This document shows positions 7,671-62,222 of a stretch of DNA of 64,000 bases, in pieces. Below the pieces are notes generated by a model, which saw nothing but the letters and a program-made list of their open reading frames with translations, was not told the origin of the DNA and did not search any database. The position numbers and the translations under genes were made by a program. Origin of the DNA: Chiloscyllium plagiosum (Eukaryota); contig NC_057718.1 in assembly GCF_004010195.1 (NCBI RefSeq), forward strand, positions 66,597,351 through 66,661,350, in the 5' to 3' direction. Numbering within the stretch: position 1 is the stretch's first letter; every line of letters begins with the position of its first letter.

Positions 7671-7679
7671 AGAAAGGGT

Positions 7680-32849: not shown

Positions 32850-33965
32850 TCTCACAAACTTGATTGAGTTTTTTGAGGAAGATTGATGAGGGCAGAGCAG
32901 TAGATGTGATCTATATGGACTTCAGTAAGGCATTCGACAAGGTTCCCCATGGGAGACTGATTAGCAAGGTTAGATCTCATGGAATACAGGGAGAACTAGC
33001 CATTTGGATACAGAACTGGCTCAAAGGTAGAAGACAGAGGGTGGTGGTGGAGGGTTGTTTTTCAGACTGGAGGCCTGTGACCAATGGAGTGCCACAAGGA
33101 TCGGTGCTGAGCCCTCTTCTTTTTGTCATTTACATAAATGAATTGAATGCGAGCAAAAGAGGTACATTTTGCAGATGACACCAAAATTGGAGGTGTAGTG
33201 GACAGCAAAGAAGGTTACCTCAATTCACAATGGGATCTTGATCAGATGGGCCAGTGGGCAGAGGAGTGGTGGATGGAGTTTAATTTGGATAAATGAGAGG
33301 TGCTGTATTTTGGGAAAGCAAATCTTAGCAGGAATTATACACTTAATGGTAAGGTCCTAGGGAGTGTTGAGTTGGGAGGTCATGTTGCGGCTGTACAGGA
33401 CATTGGTTAGGCCACTGTCGGAATATTACGTGCAATTCTGGTCAGTTTCCTTCGGAAAGATGTTGTGAAACTTGAAAGGGTTCAGAAAAGATTTACAAGG
33501 ATGTTGCCAGGGTTGGAGGATCTGTGCTAGAGGGAGCGGCTGAACAGGCTGGGGCTGTTTTTCCCTGGAGCAGAGGCTGAGGGGTGACCTTATAGAGGTT
33601 TACAAAATTATGAGGGGCATGGATAGGGTCAATACGCAAAGTCTTTTCCCTGGGATCGGGGAGTCCAGAACTAGAGGGCATAGGTTTAGGTTGAGAGGGG
33701 AAAGATATAAAAGAGACCTACGGGGCAACTTTTTCACGCAGGGTGTGATGTGTGTATGGTATGAGCTGCCAGAGGAAGTGGTGAAGGCTGGTCCAATTGC
33801 AATATTTAAGAGGCATTTGGATAGGTATAAGAATAGGAAGGGTTTGGAGGGATATGGGCCAGGTGCTGGCAGGTGGGACTAGATTGGGTTGGGATATCTG
33901 GTCGGCATGGACGGGTTGGACCAAAGGGTCTGTTTCCATGCTGTACATCTCTATGACTCTATGAC
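32850..33965 (+). mobile_element. Young 5'-truncated CR1 LINE
   Basis: ORF 32864..33178 has [13 protein letters not shown]...[13 protein letters not shown]. The 3' end is ctatgactctatgact. Confidence 0.92.
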
Positions 33966-34274
33966 TGGAATAACGATGGGTATAAGAAGTGCATGCCAAG
34001 GGTCCAACCAAAGTAATAAATAATTCAAAACTGTACAAACTAAGGTAGAGAGATCATAATTTATCAAGGTGATGGTATCAAAACTGGACAGTAAAGATGA
34101 TTTTACAGATACAGAGCAATGTGGTGGGGTCATCAGCATGAAACCAAGATCACAGTTGAGGCTGTTGTCATAGGTACAGACCTTGGCTATCAGCCGCTGC
34201 TCAACGATTCTGTGTAGTTGTGTATCTTGAAGTCCGCCTTGGAGGACACATACCCAAAGATCAGAGGCCAAATT

Positions 34275-35759: not shown

Positions 35760-36953
35760 CTGTGTGAGAATCTCTCAGACTATGTCAAAGGCATCTTGAA
35801 ACCCATTGTACAGGGGTACCCCAGCTTCTGTCACGACATTACAGATTTCTTACAGAAACCCAGCATCCACGGACCAATCAAACCGGGAACATTCCTCGTC
35901 ACAATGGACGTTTCCGCACTCTACACCAGCATCCCCCACAATGATGGCATCGCAGCAACAGCCTCAGTACTCAACACCAACAACTGCCAATCTCCAAACA
36001 CCATCCTATAACTCATCTGCTTTATCCTTGATCACAACTTCTTCACCTTTGACAACCAGTTCTTCATCCAGACACATGGAATAGCCATGGGGACCAAATT
36101 TGCACCCATATTAAAACAGCCATCCCCTATGGACAAGCCCTACTCGTACATCGGATCTGTTCAGATGAGGAGGAACGTGACGGGCACCTGGAACTACACA
36201 GGGATGCCCTCATAAGAACGAGGTACGATGCTCAACTCATCGACCGCCAGTTCCAACATGCCACAGCAAAGAATGGTAATGATCTCCTCAGGAGACAGAC
36301 ACGTGCTGCAAACGACAGGGTACCCTTCGTTGTTCAGTACTTCCCAGGAGCCAAAAAACTACGCCATGTTCTTCGCAACCTGCAACACATTATCAATGAG
36401 GATGAGGAGGAGCACCTCACCAAAACCTTCCCCACACCTCCACTGCTCGCCTTTAAACAACCACCAAACCTCAAACAGATCATTGTTCGTAGCAAACTGC
36501 CCGACTTTCAGGACAACTCCATGCAACCCTGTCATGTAGCTGCAACATGTCCACATGTTGGAGTGTGGACATGGATACCACCATTACGCATAGGGGCACC
36601 TCCCACCATGTATGTGGCAGGTACTCATGTGACTCAGTCAACGTTGGCTATCTTATACGCTGCAGGCAAGGATGCCCTGAGGCATGGTACATTGGGGAAT
36701 CAGAGCAGAGGCTACAGCAACGGATGTATGGGCAACAATCAACAGACAGGAGTGTTCCCTCCCAGTTGGAGAACAAATTTAGCGACCTAGGACATTTGAC
36801 CACGAACCTTCAGGTGACCATCCTCCAAGACAGACTTCGGAACAGGCAGCAGCGAAACGTGGCCGAGCAGAGGCTGATAGCTAAGTTCGGTACCCATAGG
36901 GAGGGCCTCAACAGAGACCTTGGGTGTGATCACCTGTAGTGTGATGGTGATCA

Positions 36954-40870: not shown

Positions 40871-42994
40871 ATACATAAGTTGAACATTCACTAGTTAACT
40901 CAAAGGAGTATCCTGTTCCTAGAAGTTATGTTTCCTGATCTCTGAACTTTCTCTAGGTAAGGAAAAATTGATCAGAATAGGGCCACAAGCATTTCTCTGG
41001 AATATTTGAGTGTATCCTTTGGAAACTGAACTGAAGGAAAATAACACAAGTACAAAGCTGATTCTCCTCGCCCCAATTATAACACGGGTGTGGGCGTTGA
41101 GGTTGACAGCCAGATTAACACCCTCAAAATAGTATTAAATAAAACCAGACAAGTTGAATATTTTTGGTGATTTTGGAACATATAAAAGGATAAAGTACTT
41201 AAATCCAAGAAATATGATCAGAAACTGCTGGAAATATTCAGTAGGCCAGACAGCATCTATAGAAAGAGAAATAGAGTCAACACTTCAGGTCTACAATCGT
41301 CACTAGTTCTGACCAAATGACCTTTGTTTCTCTCTGTACAGATACTGCCAGACATGCTGTGCTAAAACTACTCACTTGCATTAGAGTGAAAAAAATCCTT
41401 TCTGCTAGCCTTCCATAAAGTACTCAGAGACAGCCTGTGAGTACTTGATTTCCCAGCAGCCTGAATCTAGTTTGGTACAATATTAAATATCAATGTCAAA
41501 AGAAAGAAAAAAAAACCATGTAAAAACATAAAAAAGCTGCAGAGCAATTTAAAACATAGAACAATAAAGCAATAGCTGATAATTTTTTAAAAATAATTCA
41601 CAAAAGTGATCTTTATAAAGTGCCAAGCAGCAGAGCTAAATAATAAAATCCTTTTTTGCCCTTTTACCCGTAAGCAGCAGAGTTTGACAGATAGATTCAG
41701 CTTCAAGTCCAGATCATGAAGGAAGGACTGGAGCAACCTAAGGAGTTAGGGTACCTTTACCTCTAGTGGGGCACACCATGAGCTTGGTTGGAATTCACAC
41801 AAAAGTGTAGCCAGTCAGAAGCAGTTAATTTTCAACATGGGTTTCCCTTCTCTCCTGAGGTGGATTAGGATATGGGCCTCTCTGCCCAGAAATCACTTGC
41901 GCAGAGGCAGGAAAGCATCAAGCACAGCCTATCTAATTTTCCAGAACTCCTTCCTTGCCTTCTATATGCCCAAAACATTCATCCCACACTCACCTTCACT
42001 TCCTTACACTCATATACCCTGGTTCTAGGAGGTTTGAAAATCAATACCCCAGAACAGGAGTTCAGGGTTGTTGTGAAGATGGGAAGACATTCACCCTCAG
42101 CACTCCAACCCTCTAGCTATCACAAGTCTTTATTTTGCTGCAACTCCTGCTCCTCATGGCCTTCCTGATTTGTTCTGCTATCTTGACTCCCACAGACCTC
42201 CAGGGAATCTGCACGTGCATGGGAGGGAGAGAAAACGTGGCCTCAAGCGGCAATGATATGAAGCACACATTTTAACTGCTCAAACACTTTAGCACAAACA
42301 CGGTGGTAGTACCAATAAAGGCAAAATATGTAAGGTGTGTTTGAGCATCCCTAAGGCATGGACCCAGCGCTCAACATCTTTTTTAGCTCCATTCTCCCTG
42401 ACCTTTTCTTCCTCCCTATCTCCATGCAAGCTGCTACTCACTAACAGATCCTCCTCCACAAATCCCTTGGTAGCCTCTCTATCACAAGCCCCTCATCATC
42501 CCTATTCTCCAGCAGAAAGCCTCTGCCTTCAATATCCCACACTATCCTCCAGGAGGTACTCTCTCCCAATGTCTCAGTCAGCAACCTTCCATTTTAAGCC
42601 TCTCCTCCCCTTCTCAGACATGTCACAGTCATGACTTGAGCATTGAGGGTTCAGGCTGAATGAAACCTTCACATGCTTACTGTTTCTCCAATCACAGCCT
42701 ATTTCTCTACCATATGGCAGTTTATAAGGTCACCAATGAGCCAACAGCAGCAAAATTAGAAGGGAACTGCCCTGTGATTGGAGGATCACCTCCTTTCAGA
42801 ACCTGTCATTTCAACTTTCCTATATTTTGAGCATTGGTTCCGAACAAATGTTGGATAACCCAGGTCTAAATACATTTTTTGTAGTGACTGTAACAAGGTC
42901 AGCCAAGTGGACCATTTAGAATAGGAGTGCCCTGACTGGGGCTGTTAATCTGGTCCAAACAGTGAGCCCTAATTGACAGAAAAACAGGAGTGTC

Positions 42995-43220
42995 CTCCCC
43001 TTCACTGTTTTGATAACACAGTGATGTGAAGGGCACTGCTTGTCACTGGCCACTCAGGTGTTTTCCCATCTTTCTGGTGGTGGAAATTGAATAAAGATTT
43101 GTGCACCTCGTGTCTTTCACTGTGTCTCACACCTATACACACACACCATGGGTACTGGGGAAAAAATAAGCACTACCGCAGTTAGGTGGTAGTGTGGGGG
43201 AAAAGAAAAAGAAAAAAAAA
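42995..43220 (+). mobile_element. Short non-autonomous Tx1-associated element (5' head, 3' hairpin tail, poly-A) inserted in the Gypsy 5' LTR
   Basis: Its head closely matches the 5' end of the LINE at 43228. Hairpin cactaccgc-agttag-gtggtagtg at 43171-43194, then an A tract. Flanked by ggagtgtc and gaagtgtc. Confidence 0.65.
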
Positions 43221-43227
43221 GAAGTGT

Positions 43228-46200
43228 CTCCCCTTCACTGTTTGATCACGCAGCATTGCTCTTTGATGTGAAGGGTACTGCTTGTCACTGGCCACTCAGG
43301 TGTTTTTCCCTTTTGAGAGTTGGATCAGTGTGAGTGTGCACACGTGCAAGGACTCTCCTCCTTGAAGGGGACTAGCTGCCCCACATCGGGAGAGAGAGGA
43401 AAGAAGAAGGAAGAGGAGGAGGAAGCAGAAGGAGGTGAGAGCTTTTGAGTCTGGGGCCTACTTTTAGAGCTACAGCCTGGGTCTCACCCAGGTCAAGGGA
43501 GTGTTGCTGCTGACCTGGGGCCCACTCCCACTGCTGGTCTCTGGGACCCCGCCCGACCTGCCTCAGCTGTTGCTGCTTGGGGCCTGCCTCACTGCTGCTG
43601 CCTGGGACTTGCCTTGGGGACCCTCCCCAACAGGCCTGCCCCCACCGTTGTGACCAAGGGCCTGCCTAGGACTTGCCTGAGGCCTGCCTCCACCACTGCT
43701 GCCTAGGACTTGCCTTGTCCCCTCCCCAGGACCTCCACCACTGCCACTGCTGGAGACCCACCTCCACTGCTACTGCCTGGGACTCGCCTTGGGCCCCTCC
43801 CCACAACCTCCACCACTACTGCTGCCTGGGACTCGCCTTGGGGACCCTCCCCAACAGGTCTGCCCCCACCGCTGCGACCAAGGGCCTACCTGGGACTCGC
43901 CCGAGGCCTGCCTCCAACGCTGCTGTTGCCTGAGGCCAGTCTCTACCGTTGCTGACTGGGACTCGCCTTGGGCACCTCCCAGGACTTCTGCTGCGGCCAG
44001 AGGCTCACTTTCACCGCTGCTGCCTGGGGCCTACCAATATCCAGCAGCAGAGTATGGCGAGCCCGAAGGTCGCAGGGCCCAGCCGCACCTACGCCGGGGT
44101 AGCCGCTGCCTTAGGCTCGGCTGTCGCAACCCCCTTCCTGCAAGAAACCCACATTACCCTGGGATACGAAGCCATCTGGCTCCTGGAGTGGCGCGGGGGG
44201 GGGGGTCTACATGAGTCACCTCACCCGCAGATCTGGCAGGGTGGCTATCTTGTTGGCCCTGCATTTTCAGCTGGAGATCTTGGGGGTCAGAGAGCCCGTG
44301 CCAGGCGATTTGCTTCACCTGACGGTTTGGCTGGGGGGCGCGGTGCTTCACTTGGTGAACATCTATGCTCCCCTGGCCGGGCCGAGGCAAGCGAGCTTCT
44401 TCGGAGAAGTGTCCAGTCATCTCATCTCCGTTGACGAGAGCCAGTGCATCGTCCTCGGGGGAGATTTTAACTGCGTCCTCAAGGACAGGGACCACGGTGG
44501 TGCCCGCACCGGTTGGGCGTCAGGGAGGAGGTTGGGGACTTGGTCAAGTGCTTCGATCTGGTGGATGTCTGGTGGAATCTCCATCCCAACTCCATCGCCT
44601 TCACCTTCGTGTGGCCTGGGTCGGAGCGTCCAGAATCGACCGTCTGTACGTTTCGCAGGCGTACGCCTCCTGCTTTCCGATGGCCTCCATGCGGCAGGTG
44701 TCGTGCACGGACCATCACCTGGTGTGGGCAGCACTCCTTCCATTCGGTGCCAGGCTCGGCTCGCGTTCTGGCACTTTAACAACCTGCTGCTGGAGGACGA
44801 GCGGTTCTGGGACTCGTTTTGTCATTTCTGGGCCAGCTGGAGAAGGAAGCAGGGAAGCTTCCCCTCCCTGAGGCCATCTTGGAACAGGGCGGTCATCGCC
44901 CTGCTGCCAAAGAAGGGGGACCTTCGTTCTTTGAAGAACTGGCATCCGGACTCTTCCCACCCCCCCCCCCCCAGCATGGAATACAAAATCTTCGCCAGGG
45001 TGTTGTCTTCTCGCCTGGCTTCTGTGCTGGCCCACATGATTCACCCGGCCAAGTCCTACACGGTCCCAGGCCTGAGGATACACGACAACATCCACCTGGT
45101 CCGAGATCTGATCCATTTCTGTCGACGGGCTGGTCTGCCAAGCGCCTTTCTGTCACTCGACTAGAAGGCGTTCGACAGGGTCGATCACTAGTACCTGCTC
45201 AGGACTCTGCAGGCATTAGGGTTCGGGACGCAGTTCGTCACCCAGATCTTTTGTACGCCGCCGCAGAGTGTCTGGTTAAAGTTAACGGGTCCCGGATGGT
45301 GCCTCTTCGCTTTGGGAAAGGAGTAAGTCAAGGCTGCCCGCTGTTCAGCCAGCTGTATTCCCTGTGCGTGGAGCCTTTCCTGCGCCTCTTGGAGGGGGTT
45401 GTCGGGGCTGGTTCTGCGCAGCGCAGCGCGCGCACGGTGGTGCTCCTCACTTTCACCGACCCAGCTAACCTGGGGAGGATGCGCGAGTGCCAGGCCATGT
45501 ACTCGGCAGCGTCTTCCGCCAAGATCAACTGGGCCAAATGTTCCGGATTACTGGTCAGTCCGTGGTGGGTGGACTCTCTGCCAGAGGAGTTACGGGGGCT
45601 CAGCTAGAGTACCACCATCTCCTCTACCTGGAGGTCTACCTCAGCCCAGCTGAGGAATCCTGGCCGGCCAACTGGCAGGAGCCAGAGGCCAAAGTCTCTG
45701 CTTGCCTAGGCTGTTGGACAGGACTATTCGGTGCTATCTTACAGGAATAGAGTGCTGGTCATAAACCAGCTGGTGACTGCCATGCTGTGGTACAGGCTGG
45801 TCACTTTGGAACCCTCCTGGCTTTGTCACTGACATCCAGAGAATGTTGGTCAACTTCTTCTTGATAAAAAGATGCACTGGGTCACTGTGCAGGTTCTGAG
45901 TCTCCCTATTGAGGAGGTCGGTCAGTCACTGGTGTGCGTCCGCACCCATGTCACGACACTCCGCCTTCAGACCTTGCAGTGATATCTTTACGCGAGCCTC
46001 CTCCTAAGTAGTGTGCCCTGGCAACGTATTTTTTCCACCAGGTATGTAACCTCAACTACGACACGCAGCTCCTGTTTGTCGATCGTGACGGTTTGGAGGT
46101 CGCCCTCAAGATGCTACCTATCTTTTATCAGGACCTGATCACTGTCTGGAACGTGGTCAAATCGCGTCGCGCCTACCCTCCGGCAGGCGTAGCGGCTGTC

Positions 46201-47172
46201 GTCAGGGAGCCGTTGCTCAGGAATCCGCACCTCTGTACACATGGGTTCGAGTGGCTGTCAGAGGGGAGGGCCATGGCTGGGAGGGTGACCAGGTCAGGGA
46301 CGTGCTGGGTGCCAGGGGCCTGGGCTAGATGCTGCCACAGGACATAGCGAGCAGGGCAGCGGTGGACGTCCAGTACGTGACCACCGCCATTCGACGCCTT
46401 AAAACAGCAGTGCTCGGACCCGACGTAGTGCACCAGTTGGAGGATGCTCAGGTGTGCGGTGGGATCCCGTCTGCGCTCACCCCAGCCCGGCCAGAATTTC
46501 ACATTGGCCCCAAGGTCCCGTACTTCCTGCGGGAGCCTGTGTCCCACAACCTGAGCCGCCTCTGGAATTTTAGTTTTGTCCCTTTTTAAGGATGTAAAAA
46601 GGAGGGCCCTGTAGCGACTGCTGCTGCACACAGTTCACCTCTTCTCCCTCATCCTGTGTCCGGACGCACCTTGGCGTGCCCATTTGCCACCGGGCGGTGG
46701 GGATCCCCAGTGGAGGGCTCTCTATGCGGGAGTCCTCCCCATTTCTCTCAGGGATCTGGGGTGGAGGGTGCTGCACGGAGTGGTCCCCTGCAACCGCAGA
46801 TTGCGGTGGTACACAGACTCCCAGCACAACTGCTTGTTCTGTAGTGCTTTGGAGTCTGTGAGCCATGTGTATATTGTTAGTGGGTGTTTGCACTCCCTTT
46901 TTGATTTTCTTAAAAACCACCTCCTCTGCTGTTGGTTGCACTTCAGTCCCACGCTACTGATCGTCGGACACCCGGTACACAGGAGGGAGGGCAAGTCTGA
47001 AGACCTCCTCACGGGGCCTGCTCCTGGGCCTGGCCAAATTGGCCATAAACATGTCCAGGCAGCGGGCCGTGGAGGGGGTCGTTAAGGCCGACTGCCTGCC
47101 CCTCTTCTGTGGTTACGTTAGAGCCCGGGTGTCCTTGGAGAAGGAGCATGCGGTCTCCACCAATACCCTTTG
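43228..47172 (+). mobile_element. Tx1-clade (L1 group) LINE, GC-rich, internally deleted ORF2 (APE endonuclease, RT, zinc finger)
   Basis: LVNIYAP, CIVLGGDFNC, SRIDRLY, TDHH, WHFNNLLL, ALLPKKGD, YKIFARVL, LSLD*KAFDRVDH, GVSQGCPL, DLGWRVLHG, CLFCSALESVSHVY. Confidence 0.85.
43560..43990 (+). repeat. Imperfect GC-rich tandem repeats in the 5' region of the Tx1 element
   Basis: Recurring ctgctgcctgggactcgccttggg and cctccaccactgc units; one ~100-nt block recurs (43590-43700 and 43815-43930). Confidence 0.75.
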
Positions 47173-48334
47173 AGTTGAGGTAAACACTTCTAGCATCATA
47201 CTGCTATTTGGGAAGCTTAAAGATCATTCAATCCTGCTAAAGACTGGGCCCAGTACATGAAAAGAGTGCACTATTTTTTCCAAACAAATGACATTGTGGC
47301 AGATAAAAAGCAATGAGTAATGCTCTTGACAGGTTGAGGACCTGCAGCTTTTTTGGTTATGAAGAGCCTAACTTTCCCTGAGGTACCAGATACTAAAATC
47401 TTTCAAGAGCTGGCTATTTAGTAAAGAAATATTGCAACCCCAAGCTTCCTCTAATTTTGAGATGTTAATTTTACCTGGCAATTCAAGAACCAGGGGAATC
47501 AACACTGGGATTTTTGACTAGGTATGACTTTGGTTTAACACTTAATAAGCTGCTGACTTACTGTTTGGAATGTGGGATTAATGACGCAACCATGCAGAAA
47601 TGCCAACAGTGAAGTCCAGTTGGGCTTCAACAGGCACTACAACTTGCTTTATCATTGGAAAATGCAACAGGTGGAGCATAAAAGTTGCTGGGTATTCCAA
47701 TGGAAATCAACATTGTCAATAGTCCGACTAAGCTCAGGGAACACTACTTGAGTGAAGGCAACTGCATAGCCCCACTCAGGACAGAAAACAGAGGCACTCT
47801 AGATCAGCACACAATCAAACCCCAAAACAAAGCCAAGCCTTAACATTTTCTTCACGATCCGGGCCAGCAAGCCGTTATAGATGCTGCCAACTCAGGAGAG
47901 CAAAAAGTCCCACAAGACCTGAATTGAGTAATAGAACTCATAGGCCAGTATCCAAGAAAGTGCACAACCTGGAAAGTCCACCGACATCTTGTTTGTAACA
48001 GTTAAATTGCTTTACAACATTCAAATTCAGAACCAATTAAAATAAATGTCTGGTTAAACTGTCACTAATTTTAAATGCAAGTAAATACTGGCACAGCCAT
48101 TTCAGTGCTGCAGAACCAGTCTTAAACAAAATTCATTCTGGACTTCAACCCTTAAGTTTGCACAAGACCTGAGCTAGACTGAGAACTTACACCGGGGAAT
48201 CTTTACAGCTTAAAAAGGTACAACTTCAGTTCCAGTTTCTTCTGAGAAGCAGCTGATTCAGTAACCAGCAATTAAAGTAAAAGGCTAGATTGGCTCAACA
48301 TTTTTCAATTTCAGAATGGATGCCAAATTAAATA

Positions 48335-48697
48335 CAGTAGCGCCTCGACTTACAAACTTAATCCATTCTAGGACCTGGTTCGCGAACCGAAAAGTTCTTG
48401 AACTGAATCAATTTTTCCCATTGTTCGGATAGCGTAAGAATGCTTGGACGTAGCAACGAACGCTGTTCACAGCGCATGCGCCAAAGACGAACTGAATGAG
48501 ATCACGTGGGACCCAAGAGCTTTTGCGTTCAACAAGTGCGTAGCAAAGCAGAACAATGAAACCACGTGGTCACACACGGGCTTTTTGTGTTCGTACCTTG
48601 AATTTCTTACGTATGTTAAAGCAAAATTTTACATACAATCCTGTTCGTAAACAGATTTGTTCATCAACGGGGTCGTTTGTATGTCGAGGCGCTACTG
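48335..48697. mobile_element. Tigger/pogo-type MITE
   Basis: Perfect TIR CAGTAGCGCCTCGAC / GTCGAGGCGCTACTG with TA on both sides. Confidence 0.92.
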
Positions 48698-49102
48698 TAT
48701 CTGGAACCTTTTCAAGAAGTTCTAGGGCCTATCAAAGGAGCCAAGTGACCTTGCATGTTGCCCAAGAACCAGTTCAACAATTCAGTTTCGTCGACTCAGT
48801 GTCATTCGCTTTACGGGCAAAAGTACAGACAGAAACCAGAAGGCTGAAAAGCGAAGGAATCATCAAAACAATCTAGTTTGCGGAATAGACAGATTGTGAA
48901 GTTGCACGGGTCAGTTTACCTTCGCTGGCATTTTAAGCAAACTGTTTCTCGCAGATGAATAAATACCTAATCCCTTGCACAAAGGAGTGATCTGCAAAGC
49001 TGGCAGGCTGGGAATTGGCAGGGAGGGGGGTGTGTTCCCTTCATGAAGTTGGACTGAGCACGCATACTTGCGATTGGGGATACATGAGGATTTCCAGAAA
49101 TA

Positions 49103-49337
49103 GGAGAAAGTGAGGTCTGCAGATGCTGGAGATCAGAGCTGAAAATGTGTTGCTGGAACAGCACAGCAGGTCAGGCAGCATCCAGGGAACAGGGGAATTG
49201 ACGTTTCGGGCATAAGCCCTTCTTCAGGAACTCAGGAACATTTCCTGAAAAAGGGCTTATGCCCGAAACGTCGATTCTCCTGTTCCCTGGATGCTGCCTG
49301 ACCTGCTGCGCTGTTCCAGCAACACATTTTCAGCTCC
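49103..49337. mobile_element. Well-preserved fold-back Penelope-related element with 14-bp TSD and two opposed hammerhead motifs
   Basis: TSD gatttccagaaata at 49089-49102 and 49338-49351. ~95-bp inverted arms at 49135-49230 and 49242-49336. Confidence 0.9.
49197..49230 (-). ncRNA. Minimal type I hammerhead ribozyme motif (intact core, same sense as the TFB1M pre-mRNA)
   Basis: Minus strand reads ttc-CTGAAGA-a-GGGC-ttat-GCCC-GAAA-CG-TC-aat. Confidence 0.6.
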
Positions 49338-49889
49338 GATTTCCAGAAATATGCCACAATTAATACCCATAAAGATTTGTACCAATATGTGAGACTGCCA
49401 AGTGGGGTATCACCAGCCTGGCCAATCTTTCCGCAGATGATGGAGAAATTTGATAAGGTCCACCACAGGTCGTCATTTATCTATATGAGTTGACCCAGTG
49501 GAGAAGAACAGCAAATGCATCCAGGACTTTAGATACTGTAAAGCACAAATATGCCCAGACAGAGGATGGTTTGGTGGTCATATTTGGAGTCGGGAAGTTA
49601 CACTAATACCTTTACGGACATAAATTTAAAATAATAATGGAACACAAACCCCTGCTCCGTCTACTTAAAGAGGTCAAGGCCGTGTTGCCCATAGCCTTAG
49701 CATTATAGCCCACAGCTGAATTCATTCTAAGTGCATATAATTACAAGCTAGCACACCGTCCTAGAGGCCAAAAAGCAAATGCAACTGCAGTGAGTCACCT
49801 CCTGCCGGCAGATACACCACCGGTGATACTGCCACGGGAAGAGTCTGTAATGGTTTTAAATCTTTATGGAAACACTTTCTCTCACAGCT

Positions 49890-50127
49890 GAACAGGAAAT
49901 GACATTGCCATAGGAAATTACATCACCAATGGAAATAACATCACCAATCCAAAGAAACCCGAACATATAAATAGAAAGTAGGGCTCATCAGCAGTGCTTC
50001 ATCTGGAGGCTCACTGAAGAGGTTACCTAGTATGGTGACGAAACGTCTGAAAATAAACTTGTAGTTCAGTGAGCAAACCTACATCCAGAATCTCAACCTG
50101 AGCTACAAATCTTCTCAAAACTCGCTA
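49890..50127 (+). mobile_element. Penelope-type 3' terminal fragment
   Basis: Contains a hammerhead and the terminus aacctgagctacaaatcttctcaaaactc. Confidence 0.6.
50011..50050 (+). ncRNA. Minimal type I hammerhead ribozyme motif (third family)
   Basis: tca-CTGAAGA-g-GTTACC-tagtat-GGTGAC-GAAA-CG-TC-tga: 6-bp stem II, GUC triplet, tca/tga stem I. Confidence 0.7.
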
Positions 50128-51342
50128 AATTGATTTAGTTTTTTGAAAAACTGATGAAGATTGATTGATGAAGGCAGAGCGGTTGACGATATCCGTACAG
50201 TCTTCAGGAAGGCACTTGACAAGATTCCGCATGATAGACTGGCTAGCAAGGTTAGATCACGTGGAATCCAGGGAGAGCTAGCCATCTGGATATAAAATTG
50301 GCTTGAGGGTGGTGGTTGAGGGTTGTTTTCAAACTGGAGGCCTGTGACCAGCAGTGTGCCACAAGGATCAGGCTGGATTCACTGCTTCCTTCATTTGTAT
50401 ATAATGATTTGGATGTGATTATAGGAGAAATAGTTACTAAGTTTGTAGATGACACCAAAATTACTAGCGTAGTGGACAACGAAGAAATTTATCTCAGAGT
50501 ACAATGGGACTTTGACCAAATGGGCCGATGGGCTAAAGAGTGGCAAATGGATTAATTTAGATAAATATGAGCTGTCGCATTTTGATAAGGCAAATCAGGG
50601 CGGGATTTATACACTGAATGGTAAGGTCCTGGGGAGTGTTACTGAACAAAGAGACCTTGGAGTGCAAATTCATAGTTACTTGAAATTGGAGTCATAGATA
50701 AACAGGGGATGAAGAAAGCGACTGGTATGTTTGCCTTTATTGGTAGTAACATGGAGTACAGATGTTGAGATGCCATGACGCGGCTGTATGGGACATTGGT
50801 TAGGCCACTTACAGAATATAGCGTTCAATTCTGGCCTTCCTGCTATAGGAAAGATGTTGTTAAACTTGAAAGGGGTCTGAAAAGATTTACAAGGATATTG
50901 CCAGAGTTTGAGGGCTTGAGCTTTAGGGAGAGGCTGAATAGGCTGGGGCTGTTTTCCCTGAAGCGTCAGAGGTTGAGGGGTGATCTTATAAGGTTTATAA
51001 AATCATGACGGGCATGGGTCAGGTGAATAGCCAAGATCTTTTTCCCAGGGTAGGGGAGTCCAAAACTAAAGGGTAAAGGTTTGAGATGAGAAGGGAAAGA
51101 TTTAAAGGGGACCTAATCAGCAGAAGGGGGTGCATGTATGAAATGAGCTGTCAGAGGAAGTGGTAAAAGCTGGTACAAATACAACATTTAAAAGTCATCC
51201 AGATGGATACATGAATAGGAAGGATTTAGAGGGATATGGGCCAAATGCTGGCAAATGGGACTAGATTCATTTAGAATATCTGATTGGCATGGACAAATTG
51301 GACTGAAGAGTCTGTTTCCGCGCTGTATAACTATATGACTCT
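50128..51342 (+). mobile_element. 5'-truncated CR1 LINE nested in the Gypsy element
   Basis: KFVDDTKI, LYGTLVRPLTEYSVQFW; 3' end tatgactct. Confidence 0.9.
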
Positions 51343-52538
51343 AATTTATGTCTGATGATCAGGAATAGTGTAGACATAGCTACGTTGGTGGGGCAGTGCC
51401 CAGATTGTTAACAAAAAACAAAAATTACTGCCCACAGCTCACCACATTCATATAAACTGTGGATCTGATTGCATGCCAATTATATAGGCCCTTTCATGGG
51501 GTCAATGTTCGTAGTCATTATGAACACACCAATGTCGCTGGGTGTGCACAGAGTTCATTGTCAATTGCAAGGACAACGATAGAAAACCTGTGCAGATCTT
51601 TTGCAATACGTGGACTCAGAAGTGTTGGTTACAGATAAAGGGCCATTTTTTACCAGCAGTAAATTAGAGTATTTCCTAAAGTCGAATGGTATTTGACAAT
51701 ATAAGGACAGCTCCGTATCATCCATCATCTTAACAGTCCAGCAGAAACAGCAGACCAAACTTTTAAGGCAGACTCAAAGAAACAGCCTACAGCTGCACTA
51801 GATAATAAACCGTCCCACTACTTCTTTGATTATACGACCACACCTCACGTAATTACAAGGATTACTCCAGAGTTGCTAATGGGGATAAGATGCCTTGCCA
51901 GGTTAAATTTGATCTCCCCATACGTGGGAGGGGGTGTGCACATGTGTGCGAAGGTATCAGGAATGCAATTGCTGAACACAAGACTCTGCTAAGCAAGAGA
52001 GACCGTTTACTTCAAGGGATGAAGTTTGGTGTAAAACTATGGGAACAGCCACGACATGATCAACCTGAATTCAGGCCCAGTGACATGACATTCAGGCAGG
52101 TACAATGGTCCTGAATAAGCATGTGGACCATATGAAAGCTGAAAATTTGCAAACAGCGTGGGATCAAAACCTGCATTATTCCTCTTGCCCTTGATTGATA
52201 CTGAACCCATGGGTCCTCTCTCTCCATTATGTGTTGAGGATATCTCTGAATCGGAAATATACACAGCGACGGTGCTGCTTTGATGCCTTTGCTGCATGAA
52301 GAAAAGAATGAATTTCTTCTGAAATTATGGGAACACGAGGCGAGCTACTGTGTATTACACACCAACCACATCAGACACAGAGTTGGAGGAACCCAGAAGG
52401 GGCTACAAAAAGAGAGGGGGGGGGATGGAGACAGAGAGTTGTAATGAGGCCAGCCAGGTGGACTTCATAGAATATATGAGTCCGCTGACTGGGTTGTTAA
52501 TCTGGTCCAATCAAGGAGCCCTGTCTGACAGATAAAAA

Positions 52539-52785
52539 GAGGACAGTTACCGCACTTAGGTGGTAGTGTGGGGGTTTAAAAAATAAATAAATAAAACAGG
52601 AGTGTAAGGGCAGTGTTTGTCAAAAAAAAAGAGGACAGTTACCGCACTTAGGTGGTAGTGTGGGGGTTGAAAGAAAAAAAAAACAAAAAAAAAAACCAGG
52701 AGATCCCCTTCACTGTTTTTGATCACACAGCACTGCCCTTTTAAAAAAAATAAACCGAAAAGAAAAAGAAAAAAAAAAGGACAGT
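52539..52785 (+). mobile_element. Cluster of Tx1-associated head/tail fragments with A tracts in the Gypsy 3' LTR
   Basis: Two copies of the hairpin tail ggacagttaccgcacttaggtggtagtgtggggg plus A tract. Target aaaacaggagtgt at 52593-52605. Head ccccttcactgtttttgatcacacagcactgccc at ~52705. Confidence 0.7.
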
Positions 52786-53845
52786 CACTGGACTATTGGA
52801 TGACACACTAAAGAGGCTCCATCAGCTCTTTCAAGTGTGAGAAAAGATTTTTTGAAGATTGCGGCTTCTTGATGCTCCGGACAATATTTATCCCTCAACT
52901 GACATATCTGAAATGTTGGACTTTGAAAAATCATTTGAAGTGCCATATATCAGACTGTAGCAAATTGAAGACCATGGGATTAAAGGGCAGTGACACTAAA
53001 CTGTTTGCAAAATAGACATTAGTTGTGGACAACAATTTCTCTGGCTGGACGCAAGTAAATATTGGTGTTCCCCAGGCACTGATATCAGGAATACTGTTGT
53101 TTTTGATATAATATAATAGAAACTGCACTTCAATAGCACTGTATTGTCCATTACGATTACAAAAAATCGTAAGAATAAGTTATTTTTAAGGCCATATCAA
53201 CAGCAACATGTGATGAGAGATTAACCAGAGCGTTCTTATCATAAAGCCATTAACTTAACTACTTGCAAGAAACCACAGTTCTTAACTTAATAATGAACCT
53301 GCTGTATAGTCACAATGAACATACTTATAATTTACCTCCTCCCTACTCAAATAAATATCTGAACTGACTATCAGACAAGCATGAATAGTTGCAAGTTGTT
53401 GCTGTCTCCTCCATAAGAAGGAGCCCTATTAAGCAGCCTAACAGTGAAATCAGACTTTAGTTTGACTATTTGGAGGATCAAAGTTAGTGGAATTCAGGTT
53501 CCATAATAGCCAGGGTATTTGTTAAGTGTTATCTTTCTACATTACTTACCAGTTTAAGAAACAATGTGGCTCATTCATTTCATCCTTCTGTTAATTCTGT
53601 TTGTGAGTTACATAAACTATTTAAGATTAGCTTCAGGTTTACAAATATTTTAATATGTTATTTTATATGTTAGAAAATCTGACCTCATCAAGAACTTGCA
53701 TTTTATAGGCAAATCATTCACTGGTTTAAAGCATTAGAAACTTACAGTACTTCTGTAGCACCTGGCACACGGTTTTCACTCAATACATGTCAACAGAGAG
53801 ATCACACTTTTAATTATAGTTGAAAAAGTATTGTATTCATAAACA

Positions 53846-54268
53846 AGGCTGAACAGGCTGGGGCTGTTTTCCCTGGAGCGTCGGAGGCTGAGGGGTGACC
53901 TTATAGAGGTTTACAAAATTATGAAGGGCATGGATAGGATAAATAGGCAAAGTCTTTTCCCTGGGGTTGGGAACTAGAGGGCATAGGTTTAGGGTGAGAG
54001 GGGAAAAGATATAAAAAAAGAGACCTAAGGGGCAACCTTTTCACGCAGAGGGTGGTACGTGTATGGAATGAGCTGCCAGAGGATGTGGTGGAGGCTGGTA
54101 CAATTGCAACATTTAACAGGCATTTGGATGGGTATATGAATAGGAAGGGTTTGGAGGGATATGGGCCGGGCGCTGGCAGGTGGGACGAGATCGGGTTGAG
54201 ATATCTGGTTGGCATGGACGGATTGGACCGAAAGGTCTGTTTCCATGCTGTACATCTCTATGACTCTA
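53846..54268 (+). mobile_element. CR1 3' end
   Basis: RVWNELPEDVVEAGTIATFNRHLD; ctatgactct tail. Confidence 0.9.
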
Positions 54269-54574
54269 AGTCTTTTTCTTTTCACTTTCTACGTCTTATT
54301 TACCAATTTGTCATGAATTATTTTTACTGTTGTATTATACATCAACTTTGTATTATGATCGGAGTATGACATTTAAAATAACACTAAGTCAATGACTAAT
54401 CTTTGAAAAATTGAATTATTCAATAACTTATAGCGACAATGAAGCATCATTGACATTAGGTAGAACCAACTAGCATCCTGAATTCATATTTTGCATATTC
54501 TTTCATTAAAGCAATGAAGTTAAAATAAATTCTAAGGAGGAAAAATTCTCAGATCAACTAATTACTGAAGAATC

Positions 54575-54960
54575 ATCCAGTGAAGCTTTGTGGGTGGAGC
54601 TAAGAAATAAAAAGCAGATGGTGACGTTATTGGGGTTGTACTATAGACACCCAAATAGACAACGGGAATTAGACAAACAAATATGCAGGGAGATTGGGGA
54701 GACTTGCAGAACAATTAGGGTTGTCACAGTGAAGGATTTTAATTTTCCTAACATAAACTGGAACTACCATAGCATTAAGAGTTTAGATGGGGTGGAGTTT
54801 TGTTAAGTGCTTCAGGAAAGTTCCCTCAAGCAGTATATAGAGGATCCTTCTTGGGAAGGGCAAAACTCAACTTACTCTTGGAAAATAGGGTAAGATAAGT
54901 GACTGAGATGACAGTGAGGGAGCACCTTGGGACCAGTGACTATAATTCTTTTAATTTTAA
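54575..54960 (+). mobile_element. CR1 endonuclease fragment
   Basis: WVELRNKK..LLGLYYRHPN..DFNFPNINW. Confidence 0.8.
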
Positions 54961-57290
54961 AATACTTATCACAACACAACGCCATCCATGCTCTCAAAAC
55001 CAATCGCAACATTGTCATCAAACCAGCAAATAAAGGAGGCGCCATTGTCGTTCAGAATAGAATGGACTACTGCAAGGAAGTATACCGACAACTGAACACC
55101 CAGGAATGCTACAGACAACTACAGGTCGATCCAACCAAAGAATACACCCGTGAACTGAACACATTGATCAAGACTTTTCATCCAGTCCTTCAGGGTTCCC
55201 TATGCACCCTCATCCCATATACTTCTCACATAGGGGACTTCTACTGTTTTCCAGAGACACACAAAGCCAACACCTGCACATCCCACTGTATCAGGCAATG
55301 CGACCCTGTGTGACATCCTTTCTGGCTACATCAAAGGCATCTTGAAACTCATTGTAGTGGAGACCTCCAGTTTCTGTAAGAAGCCCTACAGATTTCTTAC
55401 AGAAACCCAGCACCCACGGACTAGTCGATCCGGGAACATTCCTCCTCACAATGGATGCTTCAGCACTCTACACCAGCAACCCCCACGATGGTGGCATCGC
55501 TGCAACAGCCCCAGTACTCAATACCAACAATGCCAATCTCTGAGCTTATCCTACAACTCATCCACTTTATCCTCGACTACAATGTTTTTACTTTTGACAA
55601 ATAGTTCTTCATCCAGACACATGGAACAGCTATGGGGGACCAAAGTAGCACCAACATGCCAACGTTTCATGCACAGATCTGAACAAGACTTTTTTGCTGC
55701 ACAGGACCTGCGCCAACTAACAATACACCAGATATTTTGATGACATTTTCTTCCTCTGGAACCATGGCGAGGAGTCACTGCAGCAACTACACAGTGATAT
55801 CAATGAGTTTCATCCAACCATCAGACTTGCCATGGACTACTCTTTAGTATCTGTCTCATTCTTGGACACATGCATCTCCATCAAGGATGGGCATCTGAGT
55901 ACCTCACTCTACTGCAAACCCACAGATAACCTCACATTGCTGCACTTCTCTAGTTCCACCCTAAACATATTAAAACAGCCATCCCCAACAGACAAGCCCT
56001 ATGCATACACAGGATCTGTTCAGATGAGGAGGAATGTGACAAACACGTGAAGGTGCTCAAAGATGCGATCATAAAACCAGGGTACGATACTCAACTCATT
56101 AATCGCCAGTTCTGACATGCCACAGCGAGAAACTGTAATGACCACCTCAGGGAACAGACACAGGTTGCACCCAATAGGGTACCCTTGATTATCCAGTACT
56201 TCCCGGGAGCCGAAAAACTACGCCATGTTCTTTGCAGCTTGCAACACATTATCGACAAGGATGAGCATTTTGCCAAGAACTTCTCTACCCTCCATTTCTC
56301 ACCTTTAAACAACTGCCAAACCTTAAACAGACAATTGTTTGCAGCAAACTACCTAGCCTTCAGGACAACATCTAACAACACCATACAACACTCTCATGTC
56401 AACCACTGCAAGGTGTGTCAGACTGTCAACATGGATACCACCATTACCCGTGGGACACCACCCACCGTATATGTGGCAGGTACTCATGTGAATCAGCCAA
56501 CGTTGTCTATCTCAGACACTGCAGGCAAGGGTACTCTGAGGTATGCTAGATTGGCAAGACCAAGCAGATGCTATGACAACAGATGAATGGACACTGCGAA
56601 ACAATCAACAGACAAGGGTAATCACTCTCAGTTGGGGAGCAGTTCAGCGGTCAGGGACATTCAGTCTTGGATCTTCGAGTGACCATCCTCCAAGGCGGAC
56701 TTCAGGATAGGCAACAATGCAAAGTGGCCGAGCAGAGGCTGATAGCCAAGTTTGGTACCCATGAGGATGGCCTCCACTGGGATCTTGGGTTCATGTTACA
56801 CTATAAGTGACACGATACATTCTCTCTCACACAGGCACTCTTTCATACTCATACACTCACGCAGAACCTCTCTCTCTCAGACACGCACCCCCACACCTTC
56901 TCACAGGCTTAAACTCCATTACACACCCTTTACCAAGCTTTTACCACACACTCTCTCATACACACACACAAACTTTCTCTCATGCACATACACACAAGTG
57001 TATGGGGTGAATTTGAATTTGCAGATGCATTCTATTTTGCTCAAATAATGCACAATCTGCAAGTAGTCAATGCAGGCAGTCAATACATTTAATATTTTGT
57101 AAATTCTACTTTGGAAACAAAACCAATCTGACTCAACATTGGGATACAGACAGACTCTGACTTCACCCCTCTAATGCACTGCCTGAGCTGAGATGTCATC
57201 TTTTGTTATAAAACCTTAAGTTATCTTGAGAATGTGACTGAAAAGAAGTTCTGGGATTTATGTATTAATGAATCGAAACATGCAATCCAT
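54961..57290 (+). mobile_element. Penelope-like element (RT and GIY-YIG, frameshifted)
   Basis: NIVIKPANKGGAIVV, SVSFLDTCISIKDGHLSTSLYCKPTD, VTILQGGLQDR..EQRLIAKFGTHEDGL. Same family as 35760-37491. Confidence 0.9.
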
Positions 57291-57294
57291 TCTA

Positions 57295-58230
<936 letters not shown>

Positions 58231-59040: not shown

Positions 59041-60477
59041 TCATCAAATTACATTATATAGATTGAACAGAAAAAGAGAGAAACAGACTCCGGAGTGTAG
59101 AATACAGGCCTCTTAAGAGTCAACTATATCTAGACATCGTTAAGGGTCAGAAACAGGAGGGAAGTAATAGTAGCAGACTTCAACCAACCTAGTAGTAGCT
59201 TGGATAAGATCTGTGTTAAAGGAGAGAGAGCACAAAATCCTTAGAATGCTTCAGAAGATCATTTTGTAGCCAGAGTTAAACAAATCCAGCAAGAGAATAG
59301 ACAATTCTGAACTTAGGGTTTTTGAAATGAAACAAAAAAGTACGGAGTGCTTCCTGGTGGTAATAATCATAATTCAGTTAGATTTCATGCAGTGTAGATA
59401 ATATTAAATAGAAGCCTACAGTAAAAGTCTGATTTGGGAAAAGGTTAATGTTATGTAGTAATGTGTTTTGGCAAAATTGCTACTTAAAGGTAAATTAGTG
59501 TCAAAAGCAATGTGAGTCAGTTTCTCAATCTCAGAAACAGATGGAGAGAATTCAGAACACATATTTCCTCGAAGAAAAAAGTGGGGATGGTTGGGGGCTT
59601 GTAAATCTGGACTCGTCCTCAGACCTTGATCTCAAAGAGCATTTGTGGTAAGACAAGGCAAAAAAGGGAAGCTTTAGTCAGTTGCAGAGAGCTCAACACT
59701 GCAGAAATTTCAGGGGAGTGTGGAAAAATGCAGAGGTGAAATTGAAAAGAAAATTGTCAGTGTAGGTATGAAATTATACTGGCAAGTAAATCAGAGAAAA
59801 CACAAATATGTTGTATAAACATACTAAGAGTAAGAAAGTAACCAGGGAAATATTGCAGCAGAAGGATCAACAGGATGTTAAAGAAAAATATTTTCTTCAA
59901 AAGGATCTTCAAACAACTGCTGTTTTTGATGTGACCTGGTCCTTGGTGTATTGTGCATAATTTCAAGATTTCAAATGAAATTAAACTGGCAAGTATAGTA
60001 CAGTGCAGAAAATAATAACATACATTATAGATATTGGTGAAATCGGCCAACACATAACAGATGAAAAATTAATGTTGAACAGTCTGATACATCTATTATT
60101 CAAACACACTATCAAAAAAGAATTAATTTGTAAAAGCCATTTATGAAATATTACAGCACAGGAGGCCTTTCAGCACACTGTGCCTACATCATTACCTAGA
60201 GACAATCTCTTGCCTTTGAATAATTATTTAGATAAAATAATATGCAATGTCCTCGAGAGCCTCAATTGAACCTGCCTCTACCACAATTCTAGGCAGTGCA
60301 TTCCATACCCTAAATAGTCGCTAAATGAAAACGTTTTTTTTCCCCACACTTCATCCTTGTTTCTTCAACAGATCACTTTAAAAACATCCCTTGTTCTTGT
60401 TCCATTTATAAAAGGGAATCATTTCTTGATGTCTGTTCTATCCAGCCTACTCGTGATTTTGAAAATCTGGATCAGAT

Positions 60478-61620
60478 AGAGTCATAGAGCTGTACAGCAT
60501 GGAAACAGATCCTTCAGTCCAATCCGTCCATGCCGACCAGATATCCCAACCCAATCTAGTCCCACCTGCCAGCACCCGGTCCATATCCTTCCAAACCCTT
60601 CCTATTCATATACCCATCCAAATGCCTTTTAAATGTTGCAATTGTACCAGCCTCCACCACATCCTCTGGCAGCTCATTCCATACACGTACCACTCTCTGT
60701 GAATAAGTTGATCTCTTCTTAGCCTTCTTCTCTCCAAGAAGAAGTCCCAACTTCTTCAACATATCCTCGTAACTGAAGTTTCTCATCCTTGGGATCATTC
60801 TTGTAAATTGCTTTTGTACTCTCTCCAACGTGATCACATCGTTCCTATAGTATAGTGTTCAGAACTGTACTTAATATTTCAGTTGACATCCAACAAGTTT
60901 AAGAATCTTAAAGAAGTTCAATATCACCTCTTCACTCTTGTACTCTATGCCCCTATTATTAAGGCCAAGGACTCTGCTTTTACAGCTCTTACCATATGTC
61001 CTGCCACTTTCAATGATCTGTGCACCTTTAAATCTTGGTCCACTCACTAGCCCCTTCCCCCTTTGTAGCCCCTACTTTATATTGTCTTTCAATATTCTAC
61101 CAAAATACATGACTTCACAATTCTCTGCATTCAACCCAATTTCCACCTATCTTCCCACTCCACAATCTTGTCTATGTTCTTCTCACCATTTACAATTTTT
61201 GTGTTATCTGCTAACTTTGAAACTGTCTCCTGCACACAAAGATCTGGATCATTAATAAATACCAAGAAAAGTAAGGGTATCAAAACAGTTTCCTGGTGAA
61301 CACTACAAACTTTCATCCAGCCTGAAAAATATTCGTTGTCTGTTGTTTGGTTTCTTATCAAACAGTCAACTTTGTATCCATGTTGCTACTGACCCTTTTA
61401 CTTCTTCAAAATCTCTAACTTTCCTCACAAGTCTGTTGTTATGTGTATCTGAATCAAATATCTCCTGAAGGTACATGTTCACATCAATAGCGTTACCCTT
61501 ATTGAACCTTTCTGTTACTGCTGCAAAAGACTACAGCAATTTAGTTACAAGACAATTTCCCCTTTGGAAATCCATGCTGACTCTTGCCAATCAACCCATC
61601 TTTTGCTATGTAATCTAATA
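60478..61620 (-). mobile_element. Young CR1 3' end (60478-60700) inserted in an older CR1
   Basis: ORFs 60556..60837 and 61131..61361 (LERVQKQFTRMIP, KLADNTK). Confidence 0.8.
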
Positions 61621-61629
61621 ATTTTATTT

Positions 61630-62222
61630 GGAAAGGCAAGGACTGATTAGGGATAGTCAACATGTCTTTGTGTGTGGGAAATCATGTCTCACAAACTTGA
61701 TTGAATTTTTTGAGGAAGTAACAAAGATGATTGATGAGGGCAGAGTGGTAGATGTGATCTATATGGATTTCATAAGACGTTCGACAAAGTTCCCCATGGG
61801 AGACTGATTAGCAATGTTAGATTTCACGGAATACAGGGAGAACTAGCCATTTGGATACAGAACTGGCTCGAAGGTAGAAGACAGAGGGTGGTCATGGAGG
61901 GTTATTTTTCAGACTGGAGGCCTGTGACCAGTGGAGTGCCACAAGGATCGGTGCTGGGTACTCTACTTGTTGTCATTTACATAAATGATTTGGATGCGAA
62001 GTACAAGTAGTAAGTTTGCAGATGATAACAAAATTGGAGGTGTAATGAACAGCGAAGAGGTTTACCTCAGATTACAACGGGATCTGGATCAGATGGGCCA
62101 ATGGGCTGAGATGTGGCAGATGGAGTTTAACTCAGATAAATGCAAAGTGCTGCATTTTGAGAAAGCATATCTTAGCAGGACTTATACACTTAATGGTAAC
62201 GTCCTAGGGAGCGTTACTAAAC
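61630..62222 (+). mobile_element. CR1 RT fragment
   Basis: [34 protein letters not shown]. Confidence 0.9.

Follow-up and report, generated by a model that had tools for sequence, protein, structure and literature searches.

A Tx1-clade LINE that probably prefers a TATA-like site in Gypsy-type LTRs of the shark Chiloscyllium plagiosum

A stretch of 64,000 nucleotides from Chiloscyllium plagiosum (contig NC_057718.1, positions 66,597,351 to 66,661,350), referred to below as the window, contains a decayed LTR retrotransposon in which both LTRs give way to short LINE-derived pieces. The question raised by this locus is whether a LINE family selects a particular position within the LTR as its target, or whether the pieces came to lie there by some other route. 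The original prediction proposed an LTR-targeting retrotransposon of the Tx1 clade equipped with a non-autonomous partner, and the coordinates that it gave for the LTRs and for the individual pieces were found to be correct (Table 1).

Table 1. Features of the LTR element and of the inserted LINE pieces (positions are those of the window)
Feature	Position	Strand	Basis
Upstream LTR, 5' half (starts TGT, ends with target)	42889..42994	+	79% identity to 52440-52538; present in multiple copies in contigs of three organisms
Target, probable target-site duplication, AAAAACAGGAGTGTC at TATA-like box	42980..42994	+	Whole copy; empty LTRs diverge after target; partial copies behind each poly(A)
Piece 1: whole Tx1 3' UTR, long type	42995..43220	+	Preceded by ORF2 end in 181 RNA reads
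Target copy, degenerate, separating pieces 1 and 2	about 43216..43228	+	Alignment
Piece 2: first 80 bases of 3' UTR, 3' side cut off	43229..43309	+	82% to piece 1
Long Tx1 copy, 5' region with GC-rich internal repeats (43464-44035; D2, D3, D5)	43310..44053	+	Contig joins
Piece 3: decayed Tx1 coding region	44054..47172	+	Tx1L ORF2 and turtle homologue as tblastn queries; Pfam; tree
Gypsy-type LTR element, decayed internal region, broken up by other repeats	47176..52439	+	Pfam; RNase H then integrase
Gag-like start	about 47195	+	Weak lead only: <0.9 for 31-residue piece (atlas)
RNase H	about 49500-49670	+	Pfam RT_RNaseH E 6e-7, above cut-off
Integrase	about 51350-51900	+	Pfam rve E 0.02 at about 51620-51700, below cut-off
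Purine run	52408-52439	+	Sequence
Downstream LTR, 5' half, last letters TATA-like GATAAAAA	52440..52538	+	blastn/alignment to upstream half
Piece A: short-type tail only and A tract	52539..52596	+	Five A shared at LTR joint
Target copy AAAACAGGAGTGT	52593..52605	+	13/13 identical to 42981-42993
Piece B: 16 bases of 3' UTR followed by A tract, tail and poly(A)	52606..52695	+	Alignment
Degenerate target copy	about 52691..52703	+	Alignment
Piece C: opening 40 bases of 3' UTR, then A-rich tract and opening 9 bases of short-type tail; truncated there	52704..52787	+	87% identical to piece 2 (38 bases compared)

The host is a Gypsy-type (Ty3) LTR retrotransposon, with RNase H ahead of integrase between the LTRs. 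Alignment of the two LTR 5' halves revealed identity at 75 of 95 bases (∼79%; blastn E 2e-15), with the similarity stopping in both at one homologous TATA-like point, as had been predicted. Since the 3' half is missing from both LTRs, no insertion in the window is flanked by LTR sequence on both sides, and since the primer site and the right end are absent also, a common origin of the two LTRs cannot be demonstrated.

Five or six poly(A)-type pieces, all on the same strand and with target copies between them, follow the two LTR halves, in agreement with the predicted number of about five. Piece 1 has the highest read depth of the whole window and ends with a terminal hairpin (43170-43195; z -4.8, 0 of 200 shuffles) followed by poly(A) (43201-43220). 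Poly(A) lies behind the hairpin in pieces A and B also, and alignment showed that the 5' ends of pieces 1, A and B differ, and that the 3' UTR is of the long type in the upstream LTR and of the short type in the downstream LTR. The tails of pieces A and B are identical at 38 of 39 bases, and given this near-identity part of the array may represent a local duplication. The starts of pieces 1, 2 and C, by comparison, differ by no more than 2 bases and lie just ahead of an 8-pair stem; random truncation does not explain this agreement. No LTR 3' half is present after piece C. Exact copies of the 15-base motif termed the 'head' in the original prediction lie at 42996, 43229 and 52704; when as many as two mismatches were allowed, five matches were found against 0.33 expected, the extra two, at 26378 and 30558, both having two mismatches. 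Exact copies of the 25-base tail lie at 43175, 52549 and 52641 (0.00 expected with up to three mismatches), and the tails, head and target copies anticipated in the downstream LTR are all present. Searches with blastn and tblastn revealed no further head, tail or Tx1 body copies in the 64-kb window.

The head proved to be something other than the 5' head of the LINE, as which it had been interpreted. In 181 reads from a raw RNA run labelled as this species (a poly(A)-primed library), the 30 bases ahead of the head encode S-N-S-I-L-I-stop, matching the C-terminus of the full-length turtle homologue P0076 (P-S-G-S-L-R-L-T-L-stop), and the head begins 8 bases past this ORF2 stop. The head is therefore the start of the LINE 3' UTR, its reading as a 5' head being rejected, and the short pieces are thus LINE 3' ends as opposed to a demonstrated head-plus-tail partner. 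A search of Rfam with 42800-44100 returned no small-RNA head of note, the only hit being a chance match (E 0.51), and the proposed partner is not supported on either count. The upstream unit of ∼225 bp is present as described, but with a 3' UTR start where a head was envisaged. Similarly, the motif at 43229 is exact, but it is 3' UTR sequence and probably not the opening of a long LINE, and the LINE itself is decayed. At 43305, 82 RNA reads depart from the window sequence and continue as 3' UTR sequence; piece 2 is less likely to be a module from the 5' end of the long element than a cut-off 3' UTR.

The long LINE has lost almost the whole of ORF1, some 215 codons of ORF2 and its 3' end. Within piece 3 the start of ORF1 is fused to the ORF2 endonuclease, followed by the RT and a C-terminal zinc-binding region, with internal deletions near 44140 and 44880, and contigs from other copies diverge from it after 44133 and 47169. 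The ORF1 remnant amounts to about 28 codons from 44054, with no domain match. Ahead of the RT, residues 57-287 of Tx1L match the APE endonuclease region at 44205-44885 (tblastn E 1e-23), and Pfam did not detect an endonuclease at the shark LINE; of the remaining domains, RVT_1 scored above the Pfam cut-off (E 3e-8) and zf-RVT below it (E 4e-4). No target copy lies directly before 43310, where the 5' region of the long copy starts. Contigs of run X12 join 43358/43373 to 43567/43570, and the interval from 43310 to 44053 therefore occurs in the 5' region of other copies also.

The LINE is a member of the Tx1 clade, as predicted, on the Tx1L branch. Its RT falls in an eight-row clade with Xenopus laevis Tx1L (P14381) and turtle, sturgeon and whale-shark rows (support 100/99), and shares 60% identity with Tx1L over 232 residues versus at most 45% with rows outside the clade. 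The tree comprised 35 of 149 homologues, these being 30 from the first search minus P0001, together with six that were picked (four turtle, sturgeon and Tx1L), and was built without Keno, Kibi, Koshi, Dewa, Mutsu or crocodilian rows. A homologue search with the frameshifted C-terminal piece of the LINE gave no match, the RT protein identified no related loci in viral and GTDB contigs, and nothing was found when metagenome contigs were scanned for the tail pattern, metagenome and GTDB contigs for the 3' UTR motif, or viral contigs for the LTR motif.

Public reads permitted empty and filled LTRs to be compared. The empty form, in which other letters follow the target, is present in 107 contigs of run X12, and because other LTR copies read differently after the target the pieces represent insertions into the LTR and do not belong to it. 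A further contig of this run, from another organism, connects LTR base 42958 with Tx1 base 47113 by way of 39 letters, the last of which form a target variant. Since this truncated copy derives from another organism, and since the 5' ends differ and the 3' UTR types differ between the LTRs, the pieces are considered to have inserted independently at the LTR site, as had been proposed. The numbers involved are small, with independent 5'-truncated copies at the LTR site comprising pieces 1, A and B and the contig truncated at 47113, and with one LTR-to-LINE junction among the 15 joints listed.

In runs X1, X9 and X12, respectively, read depth at the ORF2 3' end is 25x, 7x and 4.5x that of the endonuclease region, and it amounts to 26 to 38 times that of the Gypsy gag bin, a pattern that fits independent 5'-truncated copies and not sequence carried along by the Gypsy element. 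Reads of at least three organisms contain the family in abundance. Summed depth at the 3' UTR start exceeds that of the LTR half, empty LTRs included, by 6.4x, 3.9x and 5.0x, although depth does not equate to copy number and rows at poly(A) were skipped in mapping; the excess reflects either long arrays, or diverged LTR subfamilies that were missed, or many copies elsewhere. The 3' UTR is 1.6 to 1.9 times deeper than the ORF2 end.

It seems likely, on this evidence, that an abundant shark LINE of the Tx1L branch inserts by TPRT with a strong preference for the TATA-like box of Gypsy-type LTRs, and in the direction of the LTR. The LINE endonuclease, from which the site preference would derive, would nick the T-rich bottom strand at the LTR site, with the poly(A) tail of the LINE priming at the nicked strand and about 15 bases (AAAAACAGGAGTGTC) probably being duplicated per insertion. 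Each insertion would thereby furnish fresh target copies, at which later copies could stack head to tail. Most copies would be 5'-truncated, the short pieces representing LINE 3' ends with either a long or a short type of 3' UTR, the latter of presumptive composition, and later deletions would have trimmed the pieces further and removed both LTR 3' halves. An improbable elaboration of this scheme is that, having landed in sense behind the TATA box, the inserts are transcribed by the LTR promoter, such that promoterless 3' ends become the masters of a short non-autonomous element that always starts at the stem-loop of the 3' UTR. Full-length copies may, in this scheme, carry the 80-base module at the 5' end. 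If this were true, then target choice, transcription and SINE birth would be one mechanism.

The degree of specificity could be questioned, in that an abundant family without a specific target, drawn to T/A junctions much as L1 is, might have met the LTR site as one hot spot among others, with arrays growing via earlier poly(A) tails and local duplication. The bottom strand indeed has a T-tract junction of the L1 type at the site (the L1 consensus is given as TTTT/AA in PMC1950540), the summed depth of LINE 3' ends is 4 to 6 times that of the LTR half, and the near-identical tails of pieces A and B would be explained. However, the window contains 95 TAAAAA sites and 20 runs of at least eight A or T, six of the latter inside the arrays, and the other 90-odd sites and 14 other long runs are devoid of any piece. 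Moreover, the G-rich part of the target, and not only A, lies between pieces, and the same LTR-LINE junction was found in another organism. The chance of two independent first hits falling on both LTR sites among 95 is roughly 2e-4, a value that has to be read in the knowledge that the window was picked for its pattern and that the upstream site has lost a T. A generalist is accordingly considered unlikely. That the pieces are a fixed part of the LTR, or one old insertion copied to both LTRs by Gypsy replication, is very unlikely and already largely refuted: empty LTRs exist in the 107 contigs, and although both LTRs end at one point, and pieces 2 and C start alike with roughly LTR-level likeness, the arrays differ in piece number, 5' ends and 3' UTR type, the depth of the LINE 3' end relative to gag is too great for a passenger, and another junction with a different truncation point exists.

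The common start of pieces 1, 2 and C ahead of the stem is in favour of an unlikely reading, a corrected form of the partner proposed originally, namely that the 3' UTR alone constitutes a separate non-autonomous retroposon with a fixed start, and that the long element opens with the same 80-base module. The position of piece 2, which has a target copy before it but none after it, where the 5' region of the long element follows, would be accommodated also. Nevertheless, the stem or a 1-base microhomology could steer truncation to the shared start, the reads reveal no position at which many molecules start, 181 RNA reads cross from ORF2 into the head, 82 pass from piece 2 into ordinary 3' UTR, and no small-RNA head was evident in Rfam. 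The step in depth from ORF2 to the 3' UTR might be ascribed to such an element, but is consistent with an ongoing truncation gradient. Likewise, the 3' UTR is the most RNA-covered part, with 432-449 first mates on the minus strand versus 9-15 on the plus strand, but in a poly(A)-primed library intronic genomic A tracts can mimic this bias, and it was rejected as proof of element transcription since priming on genomic A tracts yields the same result.

The principle that a Tx1 LINE homes to another transposon and stacks there is already published. Kojima 2015 (PMC4494074), in which a Tx1 family is deemed target-specific if >20% of its flanks are of one sequence type, describes Tx1 relatives that target other transposons, LTR elements included, and tandem insertions that enclose the target duplication. 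Two crocodilian families, Tx1-8_Crp and Tx1-4_AMi, insert preferentially into LTR retrotransposons, the same class of target as in the shark, as far as can be compared by description; Tx1-4_AMi has a U1-derived head in that text, whereas no small-RNA head was found in the shark pieces. The novelty is thus smaller than originally suggested; no report of an LTR-targeting Tx1 family in sharks was found in the literature. The same text describes Tx1-Mar with SINEU-3 in crocodilians, short poly(A) elements in tandem around a target duplication inside a transposon, much like the shark array, but SINEU elements have snRNA-derived heads, no matching LINE tail and a Mariner target, whereas the shark short pieces are the LINE's own 3' UTR. 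Tx1L (P14381, P0130) shares with the shark LINE its branch, an APE endonuclease and a single site in another transposon. Its target, however, is the DNA transposon Tx1D and not an LTR, and its endonuclease specificity was demonstrated in vitro, according to PMC1950540, whereas that of the shark LINE is putative. Like human L1, as characterised in that same text, the shark LINE would nick at a T-tract/A junction and produce a duplication starting with A, but L1 is dispersed and the shark pieces are restricted to one longer motif.

The locus adds the LTR TATA-like box as a target, and sharks as a lineage, to the site-choosing Tx1 LINEs. An abundant family offers many natural insertions in which to study how an APE endonuclease gains specificity near the generic L1 site, a matter that bears on the engineering of site-specific retrotransposons. 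For the host elements, repeated hits on the TATA box may disable many LTR promoters.

TGT-initial stretches at the two LTR starts, identical at 75 of 95 bases over an alignment of ~100 bases, cease to resemble each other at a TATA-like run, and both LTRs lack the 3' half. The original observation that both LTRs break at one homologous TATA-like point, bearing same-strand pieces found nowhere else in the 64 kb, is upheld by this match, by motif scans and by blastn and tblastn, which detected neither the LINE body nor its head or tail anywhere else in that stretch. The pieces behind each LTR half are assembled from a 15-base motif, the head, and a 25-base hairpin motif, the tail. Exact heads start at 42996, 43229 and 52704 (five matches at ≤2 mismatches, versus 0.33 expected in the window), and exact tails at 43175, 52549 and 52641, none being expected in the window. 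The tail of piece 1 folds into a 10-pair stem (z −4.8), the other two folding less strongly (z −2.1 and −2.3). In the piece alignment, every poly(A) with a further piece behind it is followed by a whole or degenerate target copy.

Features of the window (window coordinates)
Feature	Position	Remarks
Upstream LTR half	42889-42994	
Target	42980-42994	AAAAACAGGAGTGTC; end of upstream LTR half
Piece 1	42995-43220	Complete long-type 3' UTR
Early 3' UTR ends	43142-43166	
Piece 2	43229-43309	Second 3' UTR, cut off; long copy follows
Long LINE copy, 5' region	43310-44053	
Repeats in Tx1 5' region	43464-44035	GC-rich, internal; number varies between copies; many joints skip or step back
Long copy, coding (piece 3)	44054-47172	From 44051: CpG observed/expected 0.62, GC 59% (left flank 0.12, LTR half 0); differences from other copies chiefly C>T and G>A
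Gypsy-type internal region	47176-52439	
Inverted-repeat element	48332-48700	369 bases; 26-base terminal inverted repeats, 96% complementary; within Gypsy pol region
Near-perfect palindrome	49098-49346	105-base arms, 94% complementary, 11-base spacing; family also at 104-303, 543-672, 2542-2617, 31819-32033
Fragment of different LINE family	50121-51344	Relatives at 32849-33971, 53846-54269, 57300-58090, 60476-60710, 61686-62223
Downstream LTR half	52440-52538	
Piece A	52539-52596	
Piece B	52606-52695	
Piece C	52704-52787	
Decayed RT-like element, two copies	54918-56790; 35760-36925	75-82% alike; ORFs presumably Penelope-type
Inverted pair, LINE-like	3065-7675	1.4 kb and 0.7 kb; 75-77% alike

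Homologue searches with the window LINE returned Tx1-type ORF2 proteins, Xenopus Tx1L (P14381) being alignable from the endonuclease to close to the C-terminus. A 36-row RT tree, from which named Keno, Kibi, Koshi and crocodilian sequences are absent, pairs the window RT with a whale-shark predicted protein (66% identical, support 98/85) inside an eight-row clade (100/99) of window and whale-shark rows, Tx1L, sturgeon and four turtle rows; identity to rows outside it is at most 45%. A shark is thus the likely host. The proposed Tx1-clade assignment holds. The long copy itself is dead, because ORF1 and ORF2 are fused (the ORF1 start at 44054 passes directly into ORF2 sequence; other copies go on differently past 44133, with loose ends in 11 and 13 contigs), ~215 codons are gone at 44880 and the 3' end is missing from ~47172, where 61, 54 and 66 records of X1, X9 and X21 continue into ORF2.

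These records come from four public runs aligned to 42800-47400 at 80% likeness, namely DNA contigs of three organisms (X1, X9, X12) and raw poly(A) RNA reads under the same species label (X21); the best share among 24 candidate runs was 0.32, so that the aligned sequences represent relatives or paralogous copies. Of the 931 joints, 15 enter the evidence, as do 24 of the 5191 loose ends; poly(A) rows lie outside the alignment and the downstream LTR outside the aligned interval. The head had been assigned with the tail to a separate non-autonomous partner; this is not supported, since 181 X21 reads identify it as the start of the LINE 3' UTR. They reach it from 30 bases read by eye as S-N-S-I-L-I-stop plus 7 bases, while the X21 continuation past 47169 translates as E-L-F-R-E-R-W-A-P and the turtle homologue P0076 ends E-R-W-A-L-S-G-V-L-C-S-V-T-P-S-G-S-L-R-L-T-L. 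Together, the reads and the fit to P0076, which bridges ~8 intervening codons, place the head at the 3' UTR start, 8 bases past the ORF2 stop. RNA reads over the 3' UTR are ~430-450 deep on a single strand; this was rejected as proof of transcription, since A tracts in the genome, primed by oligo-dT, would give the same picture. Poly(A) follows position 43166 in 47 RNA reads, and one X12 contig has an A-rich, target-like junction past 43142; additional 3' end variants may exist.

An empty form of the LTR exists: 107 X12 contigs depart from the window at 42970, cross the target and continue with non-head letters. Among the joints listed, one X12 contig passes from LTR base 42958 through 39 letters ending with a target variant to LINE base 47113, and is a further truncated copy at the same site. 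Depth rises along the LINE, the 46958-47111 bin exceeding the endonuclease bin 25-, 7- and 4.5-fold and the Gypsy gag bin 38-, 28- and 35-fold (X1, X9 and X12, respectively), the pattern of many 5'-truncated copies arising independently of the Gypsy element. Copying of a single insertion by the Gypsy element is also argued against by the different 3' UTR types in the two LTRs, the downstream pieces, which have in common an A tract, then AGGACAGT, then the hairpin, probably being of a shorter type, to judge from the piece alignment. The stacking may partly be local duplication, since the tails of pieces A and B are identical at 38 of 39 bases. The starts of pieces 1, 2 and C agree within 2 bases, directly 5' of an 8-pair stem that is retained in pieces 1 and 2, and piece B begins inside its 3' arm; these shared starts could stem from structure-biased truncation, from duplication within the array or from a short element of defined extent, and no peak of molecule starts was found in the reads on 42800-47400. 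Piece 2 could be the 5' end of the long copy, as originally proposed, because no target copy immediately precedes 43310; no contig among the rows listed spans that junction. Depth at the beginning of the 3' UTR exceeds that of the LTR half 6.4-, 3.9- and 5.0-fold (X1, X9 and X12); summed depth does not measure copy number and the LTR copy is diverged, but many LINE copies may lie outside this LTR family. Metagenome contigs (tail, 3' UTR motif), GTDB contigs (3' UTR motif, RT) and viral contigs (LTR motif, RT) gave no matches.

The host retains an RNase H domain between the LTR halves (Pfam RT_RNaseH, E 6e-7) and, downstream, a weak integrase match below the cut-off (rve, E 0.02), which is the Gypsy order; a purine run precedes the second LTR. 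Its gag-like start is a weak atlas lead, and the gag assignment leans also on what we take to be likeness to such proteins. The internal region is decayed and broken up by other repeats, among them a fragment, presumably CR1/HER1-type, between RNase H and integrase; the inverted-repeat element in pol looks like a non-autonomous DNA transposon, which we assume to be Tc1/mariner-type. Both LTRs likely derive from one integration, although the primer site and right end have been lost.

PMC1950540 describes the Tx1L endonuclease as sequence-specific and gives the L1 consensus TTTT/AA, which the shark insertion site resembles. The accessible text of PMC3747384 and PMC4640811 adds no shark case, and no report of LTR-targeting Tx1 elements in sharks was found in a literature mostly excluding subscription papers and Repbase, where annotation is possible. 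Target-primed reverse transcription would most likely start at the TATA-like box, on its T-rich bottom strand, inserting in the LTR's direction and duplicating ~15 bases; every event would thus leave new targets, allowing copies to stack. Of 95 TAAAAA sites in the window, none of the others bears a piece, nor do other long A/T runs, so target recognition goes beyond the T tract. The LINE is most likely a site-preferring family whose target is the TATA box of the LTR.
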